Shown piece after piece: positions 45,843 through 53,500 of a DNA stretch of 64,000 nucleotides; within the stretch, counting starts at the first letter, position 1; each line of letters opens with the position of its first letter. The notes under the pieces are model-generated. The model did no database searches, was not told the DNA's origin, and was given only the letters and a program-made list of their open reading frames with translations. The DNA comes from a virus (taxonomy: Duplodnaviria; Caudoviricetes): positions 67,586 through 131,585 of IMG/VR virus record IMGVR_UViG_3300050336_000170; one strand, written 5' to 3'. The position numbers and the translations under genes were made by a program.

Positions 45843-46820
45843 CTAAAATTTATACTTATTTAGAATTTCAATTGTATGACGTTTTCTTTCTCCGAGTAAA
45901 GTAAGAGCGTAAGAATATCGTGCGTCTATATATTTTGAGTTAAGGATTTTTTCTAGAGTGCAATCGCTACCTATATTGAGTTGTTCAAAATTCCTATCAT
46001 TTGTTACTAACCACTTGTAGGTTATTGCTCTCATGCGTCCTGTGATTTCATGATATTGTTTACATAGATGGTAAATTTGTTCATTTACCCATTCTTTGTA
46101 TTTGGTGTCAGAGTACAGGGCAACAGTTTGTGCTTTGCGTTCAAGATCATTGCCGAATATGAGTCTTAACATAGCGGTTTTAAATTCATTGAAATCACAG
46201 ATTTGAGTTGAAATGCGTTTGTGGATAAATGATGTGTCTGTATCTGGTGATTTTAAATTTGTTACGATTTGCTGAATTTGTGATTTGATATCTTCTATGG
46301 TGTAACCTAATGCTGGTATGGTATCATTAGTATAATCTTGTAGGAATCTGATATTGTCTTGGATATGTATAATATCCTGTTGGGTATCGGTCTGACGTTC
46401 TGCTAGGGCTTTTACTGCTTCCGATATGTGGTAAAGGGCTATATCTGAGGTGGAGCTAGGGGTAGTATTATAGCATCCGGTTTTTCTAATTTCTTTAATA
46501 ACTTTTCTAGCCCATGCCCTAAATATTTGTGCTGTGGCTGTCTTGGACAAAAATGTTATCTCATAGATACCGTCTTCATTAAAAAGTCTTGTATCGTAAG
46601 ACTTTCCGTCAGTACTAACCAATTTGGTTATTACTGAAAATTCCTCTGTTTTAAGATAATCGTGTCTTGATGCCAATTTATTGATTGCGATAATTGGATC
46701 AGTGTATCCCAGACATTTACCAAGTTGATCTGCTGACATGTATATGTTGTTGTTATCGTTATAAAAATCTGCATTGATACCATTGAAGTTATCGCTTTTT
46801 GATAAGACTAAATTTGACAT
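45843..46820 (-). CDS. BRO-N domain antirepressor-like protein
   Basis: QLGKCLGY, DGKSY.TRLFNEDGIYE, A..FR.W...VIKEIRKTG.Y. Confidence 0.88.
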   Translation of the reverse strand: MSNLVLSKSDNFNGINADFYNDNNNIYMSADQLGKCLGYTDPIIAINKLASRHDYLKTEEFSVITKLVSTDGKSYDTRLFNEDGIYEITFLSKTATAQIFRAWARKVIKEIRKTGCYNTTPSSTSDIALYHISEAVKALAERQTDTQQDIIHIQDNIRFLQDYTNDTIPALGYTIEDIKSQIQQIVTNLKSPDTDTSFIHKRISTQICDFNEFKTAMLRLIFGNDLERKAQTVALYSDTKYKEWVNEQIYHLCKQYHEITGRMRAITYKWLVTNDRNFEQLNIGSDCTLEKILNSKYIDARYSYALTLLGERKRHTIEILNKYKF

Positions 46821-47204: not shown

Positions 47205-47759
47205 TTACGCATTGTATGACAACATTATTCCATAAACAATATCATTTTCTAAAAACAAGCTCATTCTGTATCTTGCACCATCTTGACTCGTTAAAATATT
47301 ATAGTTTTTGTCGAAAAATAGTACAACTAATAATGGTGAAATAACATTTTCTTCTCCGACTAAATCAATAATTTCATTTAATGTTGTGCCAGTATGAATT
47401 CCATAATACCCATACCAATCACCATTTGTTTCATTTTTAAAGTCCATATTAACCATTATAGTATTTGCTTTGTTATTAATATACATTATGGTTAATTCTT
47501 GTTCTGTATAATTGTATACATTTTCTGTATTAGATTCTGAGTTTAGATAATTTTCTCCAAATATTTTATCTATTTCTTCCTTTTCCATGCTTAATAACAA
47601 TTCAATTTTATATTTATTGTTATATAATGCTTTTGGAATTGATGCAGATTTGTTACTTGATGGAAATAGTAGTATATAAATAATTGCTATTAAAATTAAA
47701 ATTACTGGAATACCGATTAAAAGTATTTTTTTAGTTTTATTGTTACTATAAGATACCAT
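47205..47759 (-). CDS. Membrane-anchored extracellular protein (moron)
   Basis: N-terminal TM helix; repeated EI...GE beta-lactamase-inhibitor-like pattern. Confidence 0.7.
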   Translation of the reverse strand: MVSYSNNKTKKILLIGIPVILILIAIIYILLFPSSNKSASIPKALYNNKYKIELLLSMEKEEIDKIFGENYLNSESNTENVYNYTEQELTIMYINNKANTIMVNMDFKNETNGDWYGYYGIHTGTTLNEIIDLVGEENVISPLLVVLFFDKNYNILTSQDGARYRMSLFLENDIVYGIMLSYNA

Positions 47760-47806
47760 ATTAATACTCTTTTCAAATCACATAATAAACACTTTAAAAC
47801 TTCTAT

Positions 47807-47824
47807 ATCAAGATATGGTTTTAT
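47807..47824. repeat. 6-6-6 site
   Basis: ATCAAG-ATATGG-TTTTAT between two morons. Confidence 0.55.
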
Positions 47825-47831
47825 AATCTAG

Positions 47832-48656
47832 TTAATTAAAATCTTGAACTTCTAATTTGTAATGTGTTGGTTCGCCTCTAACTTCTGTCATTATTTCAAA
47901 TTGTTGATTTTCCTTGGGTAATATTCCTTCTGATCCGACTGCATAAGTCCAATCTGTAGTAAGAACTTCGTTATTATCGTCATAATATGTTACTCTAACT
48001 TCAACGAAATAATGATCTTTAGTGCTTATATTTTTTATAGTACCATAACAATACCAATAGTCACCGTCTTTTTTTATACTATCGTCAGAAATGACAAGTG
48101 GATTTTTTTCATTTTGAATTGATAGTGCTTCAGACATGGAGATAGTTTTAGTCAATTCGGAAATTTGTGTTATTACAGATTGTTCATTGTCAACAGCAAG
48201 TGGATAAAAATCTTCTGGTTTTTCATTGTAATGTTGTCTCATAAGATATATAACATCGTATCCAGCGTTAGCAAGCATTTGTGAAGCTTCTGTTTTTATA
48301 TCATTAACCTCATTTGAACAATTTGCGGATTCTGCTATTTCAGAATATCCTATACAGTTGGCTATTGTAAGCATAAGATAAGCTCTATACATTCTTTCGT
48401 CTGGATTATAATTATCTACACTGTACCACCAAAGCGTTATCGAGTCCATAATATCTATTTTGTCTTCGTAATCACTAATTAGAGTTTTAATAATAAGTGA
48501 TTCTGATTTTTCATACGCTTTGTCGTAATTTCCATTAAGATATAACGATTTTATAGAAGATGCTGCATTAAGCTGACATAAGTAAAATACAAAAATGATA
48601 AGAATTAAAGATATTGCTGCGATTACTATTTTTTTAAATTTAGTTTTTACTTTCAT
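47832..48656 (-). CDS. Membrane-anchored protein with C-terminal FxLYD-type Ig-like domain
   Basis: Start corrected to ATG 48656 (AAGGAG); GTIKN...VEVRVTYYD..NEVL...I.P.E...F. Confidence 0.75.
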   Translation of the reverse strand: MKVKTKFKKIVIAAISLILIIFVFYLCQLNAASSIKSLYLNGNYDKAYEKSESLIIKTLISDYEDKIDIMDSITLWWYSVDNYNPDERMYRAYLMLTIANCIGYSEIAESANCSNEVNDIKTEASQMLANAGYDVIYLMRQHYNEKPEDFYPLAVDNEQSVITQISELTKTISMSEALSIQNEKNPLVISDDSIKKDGDYWYCYGTIKNISTKDHYFVEVRVTYYDDNNEVLTTDWTYAVGSEGILPKENQQFEIMTEVRGEPTHYKLEVQDFN

Positions 48657-48740
48657 AGAAACACTCCTTTCAAATATGTAAGGAGGAAGATTATTACAAT
48701 TATAACATAAATAAAATGGCAAGTAAATACTAAATTGGTT

Positions 48741-48769
48741 TTGACAGTAAGAATTTTCCATGATATAAT
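48741..48769 (+). promoter_or_regulatory. Consensus SigA promoter
   Basis: TTGACA-17-(TG)TATAAT. Confidence 0.8.
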
Positions 48770-48809
48770 AAGTACATAAGTCCTTTACATATTTTGAAAG
48801 GATGATTTT

Positions 48810-49376
48810 ATGTACTTATTTGGGAAAGATACAAAATATTTGTTGGTAGAATGTGATAAATGTGGCAAGGTACTTAAGATAAATAGAAACTTAGCAATTG
48901 AAAAAGAAAACGGAAACTTTACATCGAGTCAAACAATTAATTGTCCCTGTGGAAATTCGTCAGATATAATATTATTTGATAAACCACAGAATTTTAGCAA
49001 TACAAGTACCAAATATAATTTCAGTCAAAATAAGAAAACTCAAGAAGTAAGCAAGAAAAACAAAGGTTGTCTGCCTATTATAGCAGTAATTATATTAATA
49101 GTTATTGTTATCTCTGTTTTTAGGCAAACTGATCCAAAAATGCAAGCATATATATGTGCTAAAGATGCTGTTACAGCACAACTAAAAAGTCCTTCTTCTG
49201 CACATTTTTCGTCTTATGTAGATAGTAATATTTCTGAGATTGATGAAAATAAATATATGGTATCTGGAACTGTTGAGGCTGAAAATTCTTTTGGTGCAAA
49301 ATTAGAGCAAAGTTTTTACGTTACAATAATTATTGAAGATAAAGGATATATAATAGAGAGTGTATTGATAATATAA
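48810..49376 (+). CDS. Zinc-ribbon membrane protein (moron)
   Basis: CDKC...CPC, TM helix, QLKSPSSA.F...V.AENSFGA. Confidence 0.75.
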   Translation: MYLFGKDTKYLLVECDKCGKVLKINRNLAIEKENGNFTSSQTINCPCGNSSDIILFDKPQNFSNTSTKYNFSQNKKTQEVSKKNKGCLPIIAVIILIVIVISVFRQTDPKMQAYICAKDAVTAQLKSPSSAHFSSYVDSNISEIDENKYMVSGTVEAENSFGAKLEQSFYVTIIIEDKGYIIESVLII

Positions 49377-49478
49377 TAAAGTTTGTCTAAATAATCCCTC
49401 CCTCCCAACAAAAATATTTGCATATTATGGCAGAAGTGTTATAATTATGGAGTATTTTGTTGTTGTTGGAGGGATAGT

Positions 49479-50186
49479 ATGGAAAAATTTATACCAGAAA
49501 AAATTAATCATAGAATATTGCAACCATTATCAAAAAATAATAAGAAAAATCATAGTATTATAGCAAAAGATTCAAGCATATGTGTAGAAAACATAAACGT
49601 TTATGTTAACAATATCAAAGAATATTTATTGTTAACCGATGTTTGTGAATGTAGTTCTTTACTGATCTCTGAGAATAATTGGTTTTTTAGGAAGGGAAAT
49701 GTTAAACTAAGAGGTAAGAATAATATTGCGTTATCTTTGTCTATTGGACAACTAATAAAAATTGATCTAGGGAAGGATTATGATGTAGAATCTGGTCTTA
49801 TACATTATGGACTTGTGCTTAAAGTTTTAAAAGACAAGGTATTAGTAATTCCAATGACAACAGCTCAAAAACAAATAGATGTGTCTTTCCATCCAGTTGA
49901 AAATAAAAATGGCAAATTTCATTTGAGAAAAGGGCTTCTGTCAGAGGGTTTTACGAAACCAGTTGCGTTATATATTAACGACATTAGATGTATATCTATT
50001 GGTAGATTATTACCATACGATAAAGTTGATATTATTAACATATCTGCATATAATGATATAAGAGAACACGTATTAAGATATTATTTTTCAGATATTTTTA
50101 AATCAAAAGATCAGATAATAAAAAATTTAGTCGAGGAAAACAATAAGTTAAAAGAAGAAGTTAAAAAATTCCATATTGGTACTTGA
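49479..50186 (+). CDS. Orphan PemK/MazF-fold endoribonuclease toxin
   Basis: GQLIKIDLG...E.G..HYGLVL...VLVIPMTT...IRCISIGRL; own promoter TTGCAT-16-TATAAT; no protein antitoxin gene adjacent. Confidence 0.78.
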   Translation: MEKFIPEKINHRILQPLSKNNKKNHSIIAKDSSICVENINVYVNNIKEYLLLTDVCECSSLLISENNWFFRKGNVKLRGKNNIALSLSIGQLIKIDLGKDYDVESGLIHYGLVLKVLKDKVLVIPMTTAQKQIDVSFHPVENKNGKFHLRKGLLSEGFTKPVALYINDIRCISIGRLLPYDKVDIINISAYNDIREHVLRYYFSDIFKSKDQIIKNLVEENNKLKEEVKKFHIGT

Positions 50187-50211
50187 CAAAATGAAATGTA
50201 TACGCTATACT
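50183..50211 (+). promoter_or_regulatory. SigA promoter overlapping toxin stop codon
   Basis: TTGACA (50183-50188, contains the TGA stop)-17-TATACT. Confidence 0.85.
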
Positions 50212-50216
50212 ATAGA

Positions 50217-50301
50217 CGATGGATTTTAATCCGTATTATTAAGTGGACATTAGAGTCCGATTTATTAGAAAAAAGGCACTAACTTTTGTTAGTGCCTTTT
50301 T
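50217..50301 (+). ncRNA. ~85-nt two-repeat small RNA downstream of toxin
   Basis: Units TGGATTTTAATCCGTATTATTAAG and TGGACATTAGAGTCCGATTTATTAG, then terminator AAAAAGGCACTAAC/GTTAGTGCCTTTTT; no ORF. Confidence 0.7.
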
Positions 50302-50513
50302 CATTTAAAAATAATAATGTTATCTATTCTTCGTTGGGCTACTGACTGAAGAATTAAGTTTAATGTAAGACCTCCCCTAACACGGGGAGGTTTTGCTTTG
50401 CATTTTTTGTGGTTGGTTGGTTGGGTTTAAGGAATTAAATAAAATTAAGCAGGGTAAAAGCCCTGCTTTTATTATGCCCTTTTCAGGGATGTAAAAGGGG
50501 TGAACATGTTTGA

Positions 50514-53500
50514 ATGGCAAATAATCAAAGCGGTGTTAGTTTAGGTCTTCGTATAACACCAACTGATATTCAAAAAGTAGAGCAACAGCTTGATAACTTA
50601 ATTAAAAAATATAGTGGTAAGAAAATATCATTAGGGCTAGATACTTTTAATCAGGCAACAAGCAGTGCGAAAACATTTTCTGTAAATATTGATGCTTCTC
50701 AAAAGAAGTTAATACAGATGAATAACCAATTACAGCAATTAAAAAATACTCTTGCTAAAATTGGTTCATCTTCAGAAAATAGTGTTCTATTTAAAAGAAA
50801 GTCTGATTTACTTAGTGATTATCAGCGATTGAATTCAGAATTAAAAGACATAGATGTTACAAGCGAAAAGTGGATTAATGGTAATTATCCTCAACAAGTA
50901 AAGAATCTTCAAGCTAATTTGAAAGTTGCTTCAAATGAGATGGGGAATTTTACTACTAAAATTTTAGCTGGAGCTAAGTCTTTTTTACAATGGTATGCCA
51001 TTGGTAATATTATAGCTGGTATAAAAAGATCGATTGTAAGTGGTATTCAGTCAATAGCTGATCTTGATATTGCAATGGTTGAATTACGTAAAGTAACAGA
51101 TGAAACTGAATCTACATATAAAGAATTTTATTTAACTAGCAATGATACTGCTAAAGCGTTAGGGGTAGAAATAGTTGCCCCCCTGTATCGTGAGGTATGG
51201 GAGAGAAGTTTTTATGTACAAATGAGTACATAAAGATGAGAAAGTTGGCTGCTTCGGTGAAAATCCAGTAATTATATTGGAAAATACCGAGAAATACTTT
51301 GTTTATAATTTTCGCACTAAATTAAATGAGGGTTAATTTAGATAACTTAATATTGTTGAAACCAGAAAGGGATAGGTTGAATTAGCTACTCAACCGAGAA
51401 GATTTTCTCCGTCTTCCCTTTCTGTTTTTATTTTATGGAGAAATATAGGGGATACTTAATGGGTATAAAATATACATATGAACAGGTTAAAATGTTATTT
51501 GAACATCGAGGATATGAGTTAATTTCTGATTGTTATAAAAACTCTAAAACTAAATTGAAAGCCATAGATAGAGATGGATATTTTTATGATATAAGTCTCA
51601 CTAATTTATTAAGTGGTTTTATACCTTGTAAAGTTGGTAGAAACAATCCATACACTATTATAAATATTCAGAATTTTTTAAATATAAATGATTCTGGCAT
51701 AACATTAAAAACTGAAGAATTTATTTCAAGCGATAATCCATTAATTTTGCTATGCACATGCGGAAACGAATATAAATGCTCATATAATGTTTTACACTCA
51801 CAAAGAAAATTTCTGTGTAATAAATGTCAAACAAAAAATATTGCTAGTAAAAATCGTTTAAATATTGAATTTCTAAAAGAGCAATTTATTCGCAATAATT
51901 ATATTCCTTTATTTAATTCATATACAAATACAGAAGAAAGATTATTATGTAAAGATGCTAATGGTTTTGAAGGGTTATTATCATATGATAGTTTAATGAG
52001 AAACAATACTATATCAAGATATAGTATTTATAACCCACATACAATTAAAAATATTAAACATTATATCGCAATTAACAATCTATCTTGCGAATTAATAAGT
52101 GATAAATTTGAAGGATGTTCATCAGATCTTATTTTTAGATGTGAATGTGGGAATCTTTATAAAATATCGTGGACTGCTTTTATTTCAAAAAATAATGGGA
52201 TAATGTGTCAGAATTGTTCAAGAAAGATTTCAAAATATCAATTCAAAGTTAATACTTTCTTAAAAGAGCATAATATTAATTTTATATCAGAATATAAAAT
52301 TGCTAATTGTAGGAATATATATCCATTGCCTTTTGATTATGCTATATTAGATAAAGAGAAAAATTTGAAATTTTTAATAGAACTAGACGGTGAACAACAC
52401 TTTAAAGCTGTAAATGCATGGGGAGGTAATGATGCTTTTATTCGTGGTTGTAAAAGAGATGAAATAAAAAATAAATATTGTAATGAGAATAATATAGAAT
52501 TATTGCGTATCCCTTATTATAATTTTAAGAATTATAAAAATCTGATATTATTAAAGTTAATCGAACATAATATATTCATTGACAAAAGTGCTTGAACCCT
52601 CATTCAAGCACTTTTGCATATAAAAAACAAAGTATTTTGTAACGACTACGTGATAAATATAGAAATATATTTATCCACGCCAACCTGATCAACAACCGTT
52701 GACCAGATGCTATAGTCTGAACATGCATGGTAACATGCAGAGGTAGGCAGAAATGACCTACCCCCTACTTTTTGTAGGAGTAACAACATGGACAACGCAA
52801 GCAGTAATAGAGGCTACATCTAAATGGGCGCAAATGGGCTTCGAAATTGAAGAGGCATCTAAATTAGCAGAAGCATCCGCAATATTTTCTAATATATCTG
52901 AAAATATGGATATTAATGCTGCTACAGATACGATGATTTCTTCTATTAAAGCATTTGGTTTTGAAGCAGACGATGCAATTACTCAAGTTGTGGACAAAGT
53001 AAATCAATTAGGCAATTCCTTTGCGATCACAAATTCAGATCTGGCTAATATTTTAACTCGCTCGGCTTCAGCAATGGAAGTTGCTAATAATAGTATTGAC
53101 CAGATTTTATCACTTGGTACTGCTGCTAATGAAATTGTTCAGGATAGCGAAAAAGTTGGAACAGCTATGAAAACAATTTCTTTACGCCTTATGCAAGTGG
53201 ATGAAGAAACTGGAACTACTACAGAAGAATTAGAAAAATTAGGAGATACCTTAAAGGGATTGACTGGAGTTAGCATTTTTGAGTCCGATGGAGAGACAAT
53301 GCGCTCTACGTATGAAATCTTAAAATCTATTTCTGAAATTTTTGATGATTTAAGTGACTCTGCTCAAGCTGATGTTTTGCAATTAATTGGTGGCACTAGA
53401 CAGGCCAACATTGTTTCTGCAATTCTGACAAATTTCTCAGTTGCTGAAAAAGCTTTAAGTGAATCTATCGGAAGTGCAAACAGTTCTCTCACTGAGCAAG

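Follow-up and report, generated by a model that had tools for sequence, protein, structure and literature searches.

The MazF/PemK toxins are the textbook example of toxins controlled by a protein antitoxin (type II). What, then, could restrain a member of this superfamily that is encoded with no antitoxin gene and yet is followed by a small RNA? A prophage locus of about 0.85 kb raises this question. It lies in the 64,000-nucleotide stretch of viral DNA analysed here (the window), which is part of a provirus record of 131.6 kb. An earlier note, made from the letters alone, had described an orphan PemK/MazF-fold toxin without a nearby protein antitoxin, trailed by an independently transcribed RNA of two repeats, and had read the pair as a type III-like module. 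Here we relate this locus to its homologues, to a predicted protein structure and to known toxin–antitoxin systems.

The locus and its signals

The elements of the module are all located on the plus strand of the window:

49417..49445, + strand: putative promoter of the toxin gene, TTTGCA-17-TATAAT with a TG extension (consensus scan, 10/12 with TG)
49468..49473, + strand: ribosome-binding site GGAGGG, 5 nt before the ATG, read from the sequence
49479..50186, + strand: toxin candidate ORF of 235 aa (ORF list)
50183..50211, + strand: small-RNA promoter TTGACA-17-TATACT (consensus scan, 11/12), whose -35 box holds the toxin stop codon
50218..50301, + strand: ORF-free small RNA of ~84 nt, 5′ end estimated from the -10 box
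50220..50243, + strand: RNA unit 1, hairpin 50220-50233 (UGGAU-UUUA-AUCCG) followed by the tail UAUUAUUAAG (sequence and fold)
50244..50268, + strand: RNA unit 2, canonical hairpin 50244-50259 (UGGAC-AUUAGA-GUCCG) followed by the tail AUUUAUUAG (sequence and covariance model)
50275..50301, + strand: intrinsic terminator of the RNA that probably ends the toxin mRNA too (fold, dG -14.2 kcal/mol, then a T run)

Thus, the near-perfect promoter over the toxin stop, the ORF-free unit of about 85 nt with its two repeats and the terminator are all found where the earlier note had placed them. The TGA stop of the toxin ORF occupies 50184-50186, within the -35 box of the RNA promoter (50183-50188), and the -10 box follows at 50206-50211. 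The terminator consists of a 14-bp stem and a U run ending at 50301. Since no terminator separates the toxin ORF from the RNA, transcripts of the toxin gene are also expected to stop at 50301 and thus to include the RNA at their 3′ side. No ORF of at least 30 aa is present on the plus strand in 50187-50376, and the folding energy of the 87-nt stretch is -31.8 kcal/mol (z = -7.4 relative to shuffled sequences).

Taken on their own, the two units of the window are only loosely alike. Unit 1 is non-canonical in that its loop is 2 nt shorter (UUUA against the usual 6-nt AUUAGA), and its stem of 5-6 bp is kept. To judge from the homologues described below, the repeat nature of the window RNA is real. 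The covariance model R1 scores unit 2 at 38.2 bits (E 1.3e-6) and detects no additional copy elsewhere in the provirus or among the more distant loci.

The RNA is followed by an ORF-free region of ~210 nt (50302-50513) with two more terminator hairpins, at 50365-50396 and, bidirectional, at 50447-50468. The former (GACCUCCCC-UAACAC-GGGGAGGU) resembles the RNA's own terminator in three homologous loci (L001, L007 and L008), as though the window carried an insertion of ~65 nt. Within the toxin gene, towards its 3′ end, 50026-50054 forms another strong promoter-like site (TTGATA-17-TATAAT, 11/12). It is probably a by-product of AT-rich coding sequence, because its -35 box is not kept in L001.

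The module sits in a run of accessory genes with independent promoters, between an anti-repressor gene (45843-46820, minus strand) on one side and a tape-measure gene starting at 50514 on the other. The three accessory genes adjoining it in 47205-49376 each have their own apparent promoter. Two, on the minus strand, encode a 184-aa membrane protein and a 309-aa protein with an FxLYD domain; the third, on the plus strand, encodes a 188-aa zinc-ribbon membrane protein and has a 12/12 consensus promoter at 48741-48769. On the opposite flank, the ORF 50514-51233, a match to tape-measure PHROGs, ends early. Behind it comes an ORF of 386 aa for an HNH/homing endonuclease (51435-52595), apparently an intron or a mobile insertion interrupting the tape-measure gene.

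The toxin candidate

The 235-aa protein itself has no match in Pfam, PADLOC, NCBIfam or PHROGs. A word-indexed search recovers only five relatives, of 50-68% identity, and an exhaustive search extends the family to 137 cluster representatives (50% identity clusters) at E up to 1e-3. In a scan of 60 relatives, the Pfam family PemK_toxin (PF02452) is matched by 37, with a best E of 3e-10, and is the sole Pfam family common to more than two members. The family profile matches MazF/EndoA structures in the PDB at E ~1e-6, and the neighbours in the ESM Atlas are 'PemK family protein' clusters of Bacillota. An AlphaFold2 model of the whole protein reaches a pLDDT of 95.4. In this model, residues ~82-206 superpose on MazF proteins, with Z 13.4 for S. 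aureus MazF and an rmsd of 2.2 Å over 109 residues. As Pfam is blind to the window protein alone, the MazF/PemK fold becomes visible only through the family profile and the structure model. By both of these routes, the core of the protein is a true MazF/PemK domain, as the earlier note had proposed.

Two helical parts are added to this barrel (aa ~82-206): an N-terminal helical hairpin (aa 1-77) and a long C-terminal helix (aa 204-234). The N-terminal hairpin occurs throughout the family, with W68 and R71 nearly invariant. Folded alone, the N-terminal domain gives no informative fold match (best Z 4.7); it could itself be a regulatory lid.

Conservation in the barrel follows the MazF core with one conspicuous exchange. 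In an alignment of 60 family members (A1), E104 and P125 are invariant and H109, H138, P139 and R176 nearly so, while T127 is invariant among the 12 closest relatives. In the profile alignment, E104 aligns with the conserved Glu of MazF, and the nearly invariant H109 stands where B. subtilis MazF has its catalytic Arg. This Arg is R25 in B. subtilis MazF and R29 in E. coli MazF. Because H109 replaces it, nuclease activity is plausible and not assured; judging from the residues, such a protein could also bind RNA without cutting it.

Conservation of the layout

The arrangement of the window was compared across 15 loci that sample the family at 17 to 68% identity. A promoter with at least 11/12 matches lies within -30 to +40 nt of the toxin stop in 11 of the 15. 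Elsewhere in the same DNA, only 0.0046 such promoters are expected per locus (binomial P ~2e-23). Every sampled locus with enough downstream DNA has an ORF-free RNA of 80-150 nt and a terminator after the gene. Directly 3′ of the gene, the same-strand promoter, the ORF-free RNA and the terminator are found together in all five close homologues and in eight of nine more distant ones. The ninth, L012, shows no clear RNA in the 136 nt between the stop and the contig end. The RNA that the earlier note had seen in a single place is thus present beside homologues together with its promoter, its terminator and, as detailed below, stem covariation.

The recognisable RNA unit accompanies the five close homologues (L001, L004, L007, L008 and L009). 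Four of these have the promoter at or over the stop, two hairpins with AUUAGA loops, U-rich tails ending in UAG and the terminator. In L008, ~280 nt lie between the toxin gene and the RNA (L008:1439-1720), with another terminator and a run of N (assembly gap); this segment may be an insertion or a mis-join.

The more distant relatives (17-35% identity over the aligned N-terminal part) share the layout, and their RNAs have diverged:

L013: RNA hairpins GGUC-AGUUGA-GACC and GGCC-AGUUGA-GGCC
L011: RNA hairpins GUCC-AGUG-GGAC and GUCU-AGUG-AGAC
L038:1994-2106: RNA of four hairpins in an A-B-A-B pattern, loops AUUUGA and GUUAGA
L015, L016, L017, L018 and L027: ORF-free RNA of 80-150 nt ending in a terminator

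The number of units is two in the window and two to four in relatives. In four loci of the more distant branches (L015, L017, L018 and L027), the downstream RNA is structured and not clearly repeated; in L027, the TGA stop again lies inside TTGACA. The promoter-RNA-terminator unit is also present beside members of a shorter enlarged-MazF branch (L024 and L028). The four-hairpin RNA of L038 adjoins a 34%-identical relative, P0008, and its B pair is compensatory between the two copies (GACC/GGUC against GAUC/GAUC).

RNA structure and covariation

Nine loci contain recognisably the same RNA unit, and their 18 hairpin units form the alignment A7. The unit consists of a 4-bp stem and a RUUWGA loop, in which positions U16, G18 and A19 are invariant across the 18 units. 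All 72 stem cells are paired, and each of the four pairs has compensatory double changes (16 cells). This level of covariation is matched by 0 of 500 shuffles; when the 3′ partner is slid, at most 50% of the cells pair and 0-1 are compensatory. RNAalifold recovers both hairpins independently. Furthermore, the leader and both tails of L004, which are its three single-stranded segments, all have ACUAG in place of the AUUAG of the other loci. Such a concerted change fits a reader, presumably a protein, that recognises every copy.

At permissive thresholds, the RNA has no credible Rfam match, either in the window or in the 15 loci. The best score, 27.7 bits for MicC, compares with a cut-off of 90.

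Genomic neighbourhood and the missing protein antitoxin

The genomic contexts of the homologues are mutually unrelated. They include the prophage tail region, chromosomal islands and sites beside IS1595, HNH, integrase and GmrSD genes. When all ORFs within 2 kb are compared with one another, no conserved neighbouring protein emerges. There is no cognate MazE/PemI-like antitoxin gene upstream, and the upstream genes differ in every locus. The protein encoded at 48810 in the window was considered as an antitoxin and is rejected, since it is conserved beside none of the homologues. The absence of a nearby protein antitoxin, first noted for the window, therefore extends to the family. As neighbours are unconserved across unrelated contexts, the gene and its RNA form the whole module.

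Proposed mechanism and alternatives

We consider it probable, with real room for doubt, that the locus is a toxin/RNA-antitoxin module of type III character with reversed gene order and a separate promoter for the RNA. The RNA is most likely the antidote, because no protein antidote is found and yet the gene is always followed by its own strongly promoted RNA. The protein would be an enlarged endoribonuclease of the MazF/PemK family. The RNA would be made in excess from its near-consensus promoter and would in addition form the 3′-terminal part of the toxin transcript. The repeated units of the RNA (4-bp hairpin, RUUWGA loop, U-rich tail ending in UAG) would keep the protein inactive by binding to it directly. 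They would probably serve as a pseudo-substrate that the toxin may process into individual units, and a single RNA of two units could fill the two grooves of a MazF-like dimer. Once the RNA is no longer synthesised or is degraded, for example when a phage infects or the element is lost, the protein, being the more stable partner, would be freed and would cleave cellular and phage RNA. The occurrence in prophage accessory regions and in defence-type neighbourhoods makes the module a candidate abortive-infection system.

Several features could be accommodated by a different kind of partnership, in which the MazF-like protein binds or processes its RNA and the complex performs another task such as target recognition, prophage gene regulation or phage sensing. 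The change from Arg to His at the MazF catalytic position, the extra N-terminal and coiled-coil domains of no known role, the strong conservation of the loop, which suggests specific recognition, and the very strong RNA promoter are all compatible with a functional ribonucleoprotein that is not a poison and antidote. However, E104, T127 and other positions of the MazF core are kept, and histidine is a competent general acid/base in ribonucleases. In addition, a small mobile two-part cassette in varied contexts is typical of toxin–antitoxin modules, and no third conserved component accompanies it. We regard this alternative as unlikely, at roughly one chance in six. The protein might also be self-contained, with its N-terminal helical domain serving as a built-in antitoxin or lid until a trigger releases it, and with the RNA accessory or unrelated. 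The family-wide occurrence of this domain, its nearly invariant W68 and R71 and its lack of a known fold would suit such an arrangement, which nevertheless leaves unexplained why an RNA gene is fused to the stop codon across the family and diverges with the protein; we think it very improbable.

The RNA could instead control the expression of the toxin and not its activity, as a type I-like or 3′-UTR-derived regulator that works through mRNA pairing, transcriptional interference or mRNA stability. The layout does entail promoter occlusion and a common 3′ end, as the RNA promoter overlaps the end of the gene and the toxin transcript runs through the RNA. Yet gene and RNA share one strand, and duplexes between the RNA and the toxin start region are no more stable than those of shuffled sequences (z -2.05 to +2.2 in 10 loci, with no trend). 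Both observations make an antisense mechanism unlikely, in keeping with the earlier remark that the RNA does not oppose the toxin message. Moreover, the conserved parts are hairpin loops and repeated tails and not an mRNA-complementary stretch, and the repeats change in concert, as expected under a protein reader. Control of expression is accordingly given about one chance in ten. Finally, an unrelated promoter, hairpins and a terminator might have come to lie behind an orphan gene by chance, and AT-rich DNA does yield many promoter-like sites (18 found in the region by the consensus scan against 14.9 expected). The statistics of the promoter position, the complete stem covariation and the persistence of the layout in unrelated contexts effectively refute this explanation.

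Comparison with known systems

By the operational definition of type III loci, the repeats lie upstream and are followed by a terminator and then by the toxin, all under one promoter (PMC3401426, PMC12283969). The window locus does not fit this definition: its RNA follows the toxin and has a separate promoter, and the stretch between ORF and RNA has no terminator. It nevertheless has much in common with ToxIN/AbiQ, CptIN and TenpIN, with which it shares a Kid/MazF-type barrel (PMC3401426, PMC4627078 with structure 4RMO, PMC12283969). Further shared traits are the absence of a protein antitoxin, an adjacent ORF-free RNA of short, repeated and structured units, and the small mobile format on prophages or islands; the known type III members are abortive-infection systems. 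As few as two units are present, like in CptI, and they are spaced by 26-37 nt as opposed to 36-45 nt in type III.

The differences concern both partners. Unlike ToxN/AbiQ, CptN and TenpN, the window toxin belongs to PemK/MazF by sequence and has no PADLOC match, and it has extra N-terminal and C-terminal helical parts. Each RNA unit is a plain hairpin whose loop is conserved, without any evident pseudoknot. On the window protein model, CptN of type III superposes with Z 9.5 only, which places the protein nearer to type II MazF. The parts of the earlier type III-like reading that were open to checking were all borne out, with two refinements: this closeness to MazF and the lack of a terminator ahead of the RNA.

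With the type II pairs MazEF and PemIK (Kis-Kid), the protein shares a homologous toxin core, including the conserved Gly-x-x...Glu and Pro-x-Thr motifs. However, it is twice the size, has His for the catalytic Arg and is encoded without a MazE/PemI-like gene. The same family profile also picked up a canonical MazEF pair (L029), whose layout offers a direct contrast. In type I systems the antitoxin is complementary to the toxin mRNA, a relation that does not show here: both genes lie on one strand, and duplexes with the start region score like shuffles.

AbiF/RCd22 of the C. difficile phi027 prophage provides another point of comparison. There, the toxin is reported to be neutralised by a directly bound adjacent ncRNA, in cis and in trans (bioRxiv 10.1101/2025.04.15.648962). 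The two systems share a location in Bacillota prophages and an adjacent ncRNA with two copies of a conserved motif; they differ in that AbiF is an Abi_2/AbiD/F protein and not MazF, and in the RNA motif itself. In the literature, we found no MazF/PemK toxin described as paired with an RNA encoded downstream of it.

The Rfam pemK motif (RF02913) is likewise a structured Bacillota RNA, named for its proximity to pemK genes. It was considered as the window RNA and is rejected: it has no match in the window (E up to 10) or in the 15 loci (E up to 1), and its position differs. The motif was found in 33 of 151 Clostridia genomes, often in several copies (L030-L037). There, it lies 5′ of genes of the conjugative-element type (ParA, recombinase, an ordinary 126-aa PemK) and not 3′ of the enlarged forms.

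A broader proposal can be made tentatively, and we rate its chances slightly below even. A whole Bacillota branch of the MazF/PemK superfamily, comprising the enlarged forms of ~170-265 aa with an N-terminal helical extension (137 clusters), may be controlled by cognate small RNAs encoded just past the stop codon and not by proteins. It would then represent a fourth, evolutionarily separate RNA-antitoxin lineage, and some phages may carry lone units as decoys. If true, an archetypal type II toxin would be linked to type III control, and RNA control would have been imposed repeatedly on the same nuclease fold. Such loci are beyond the reach of current type III search rules, which require the repeats and the terminator upstream, and annotation pipelines label the genes as 'orphan' or 'type II' PemK toxins. 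In addition, the RNA hairpin with its invariant loop offers a defined, if putative, protein-RNA recognition pair.

Distribution

The enlarged MazF family is rare. A tblastn search of phage and plasmid collections with the protein gave no match, and viral contigs contained none by protein pattern or by RNA pattern. The genome collection yielded two loci only. Among 399 scored Clostridia genomes, four have matches: two to the full-length family, one to the shorter enlarged form only and one to canonical MazF.

Searching metagenomes with the RNA pattern gave two matches, L020 and L021. The match in L020 lies inside a coding region and is dismissed as chance. L021 (Ga0172381_10140713) is a 1977-bp phage fragment that encodes an HNH endonuclease, a head maturation protease and endonuclease VII, and has no toxin gene. 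At L021:720-812, it contains a lone, intergenic RNA unit (UUUAUUAG-UGGAUAUUAGAAUCCC-AUUUUAUUAG) within a closing stem of ~15 bp. This unit, a single case of a pattern expected a few times by chance, could be a decoy antitoxin of the phage.
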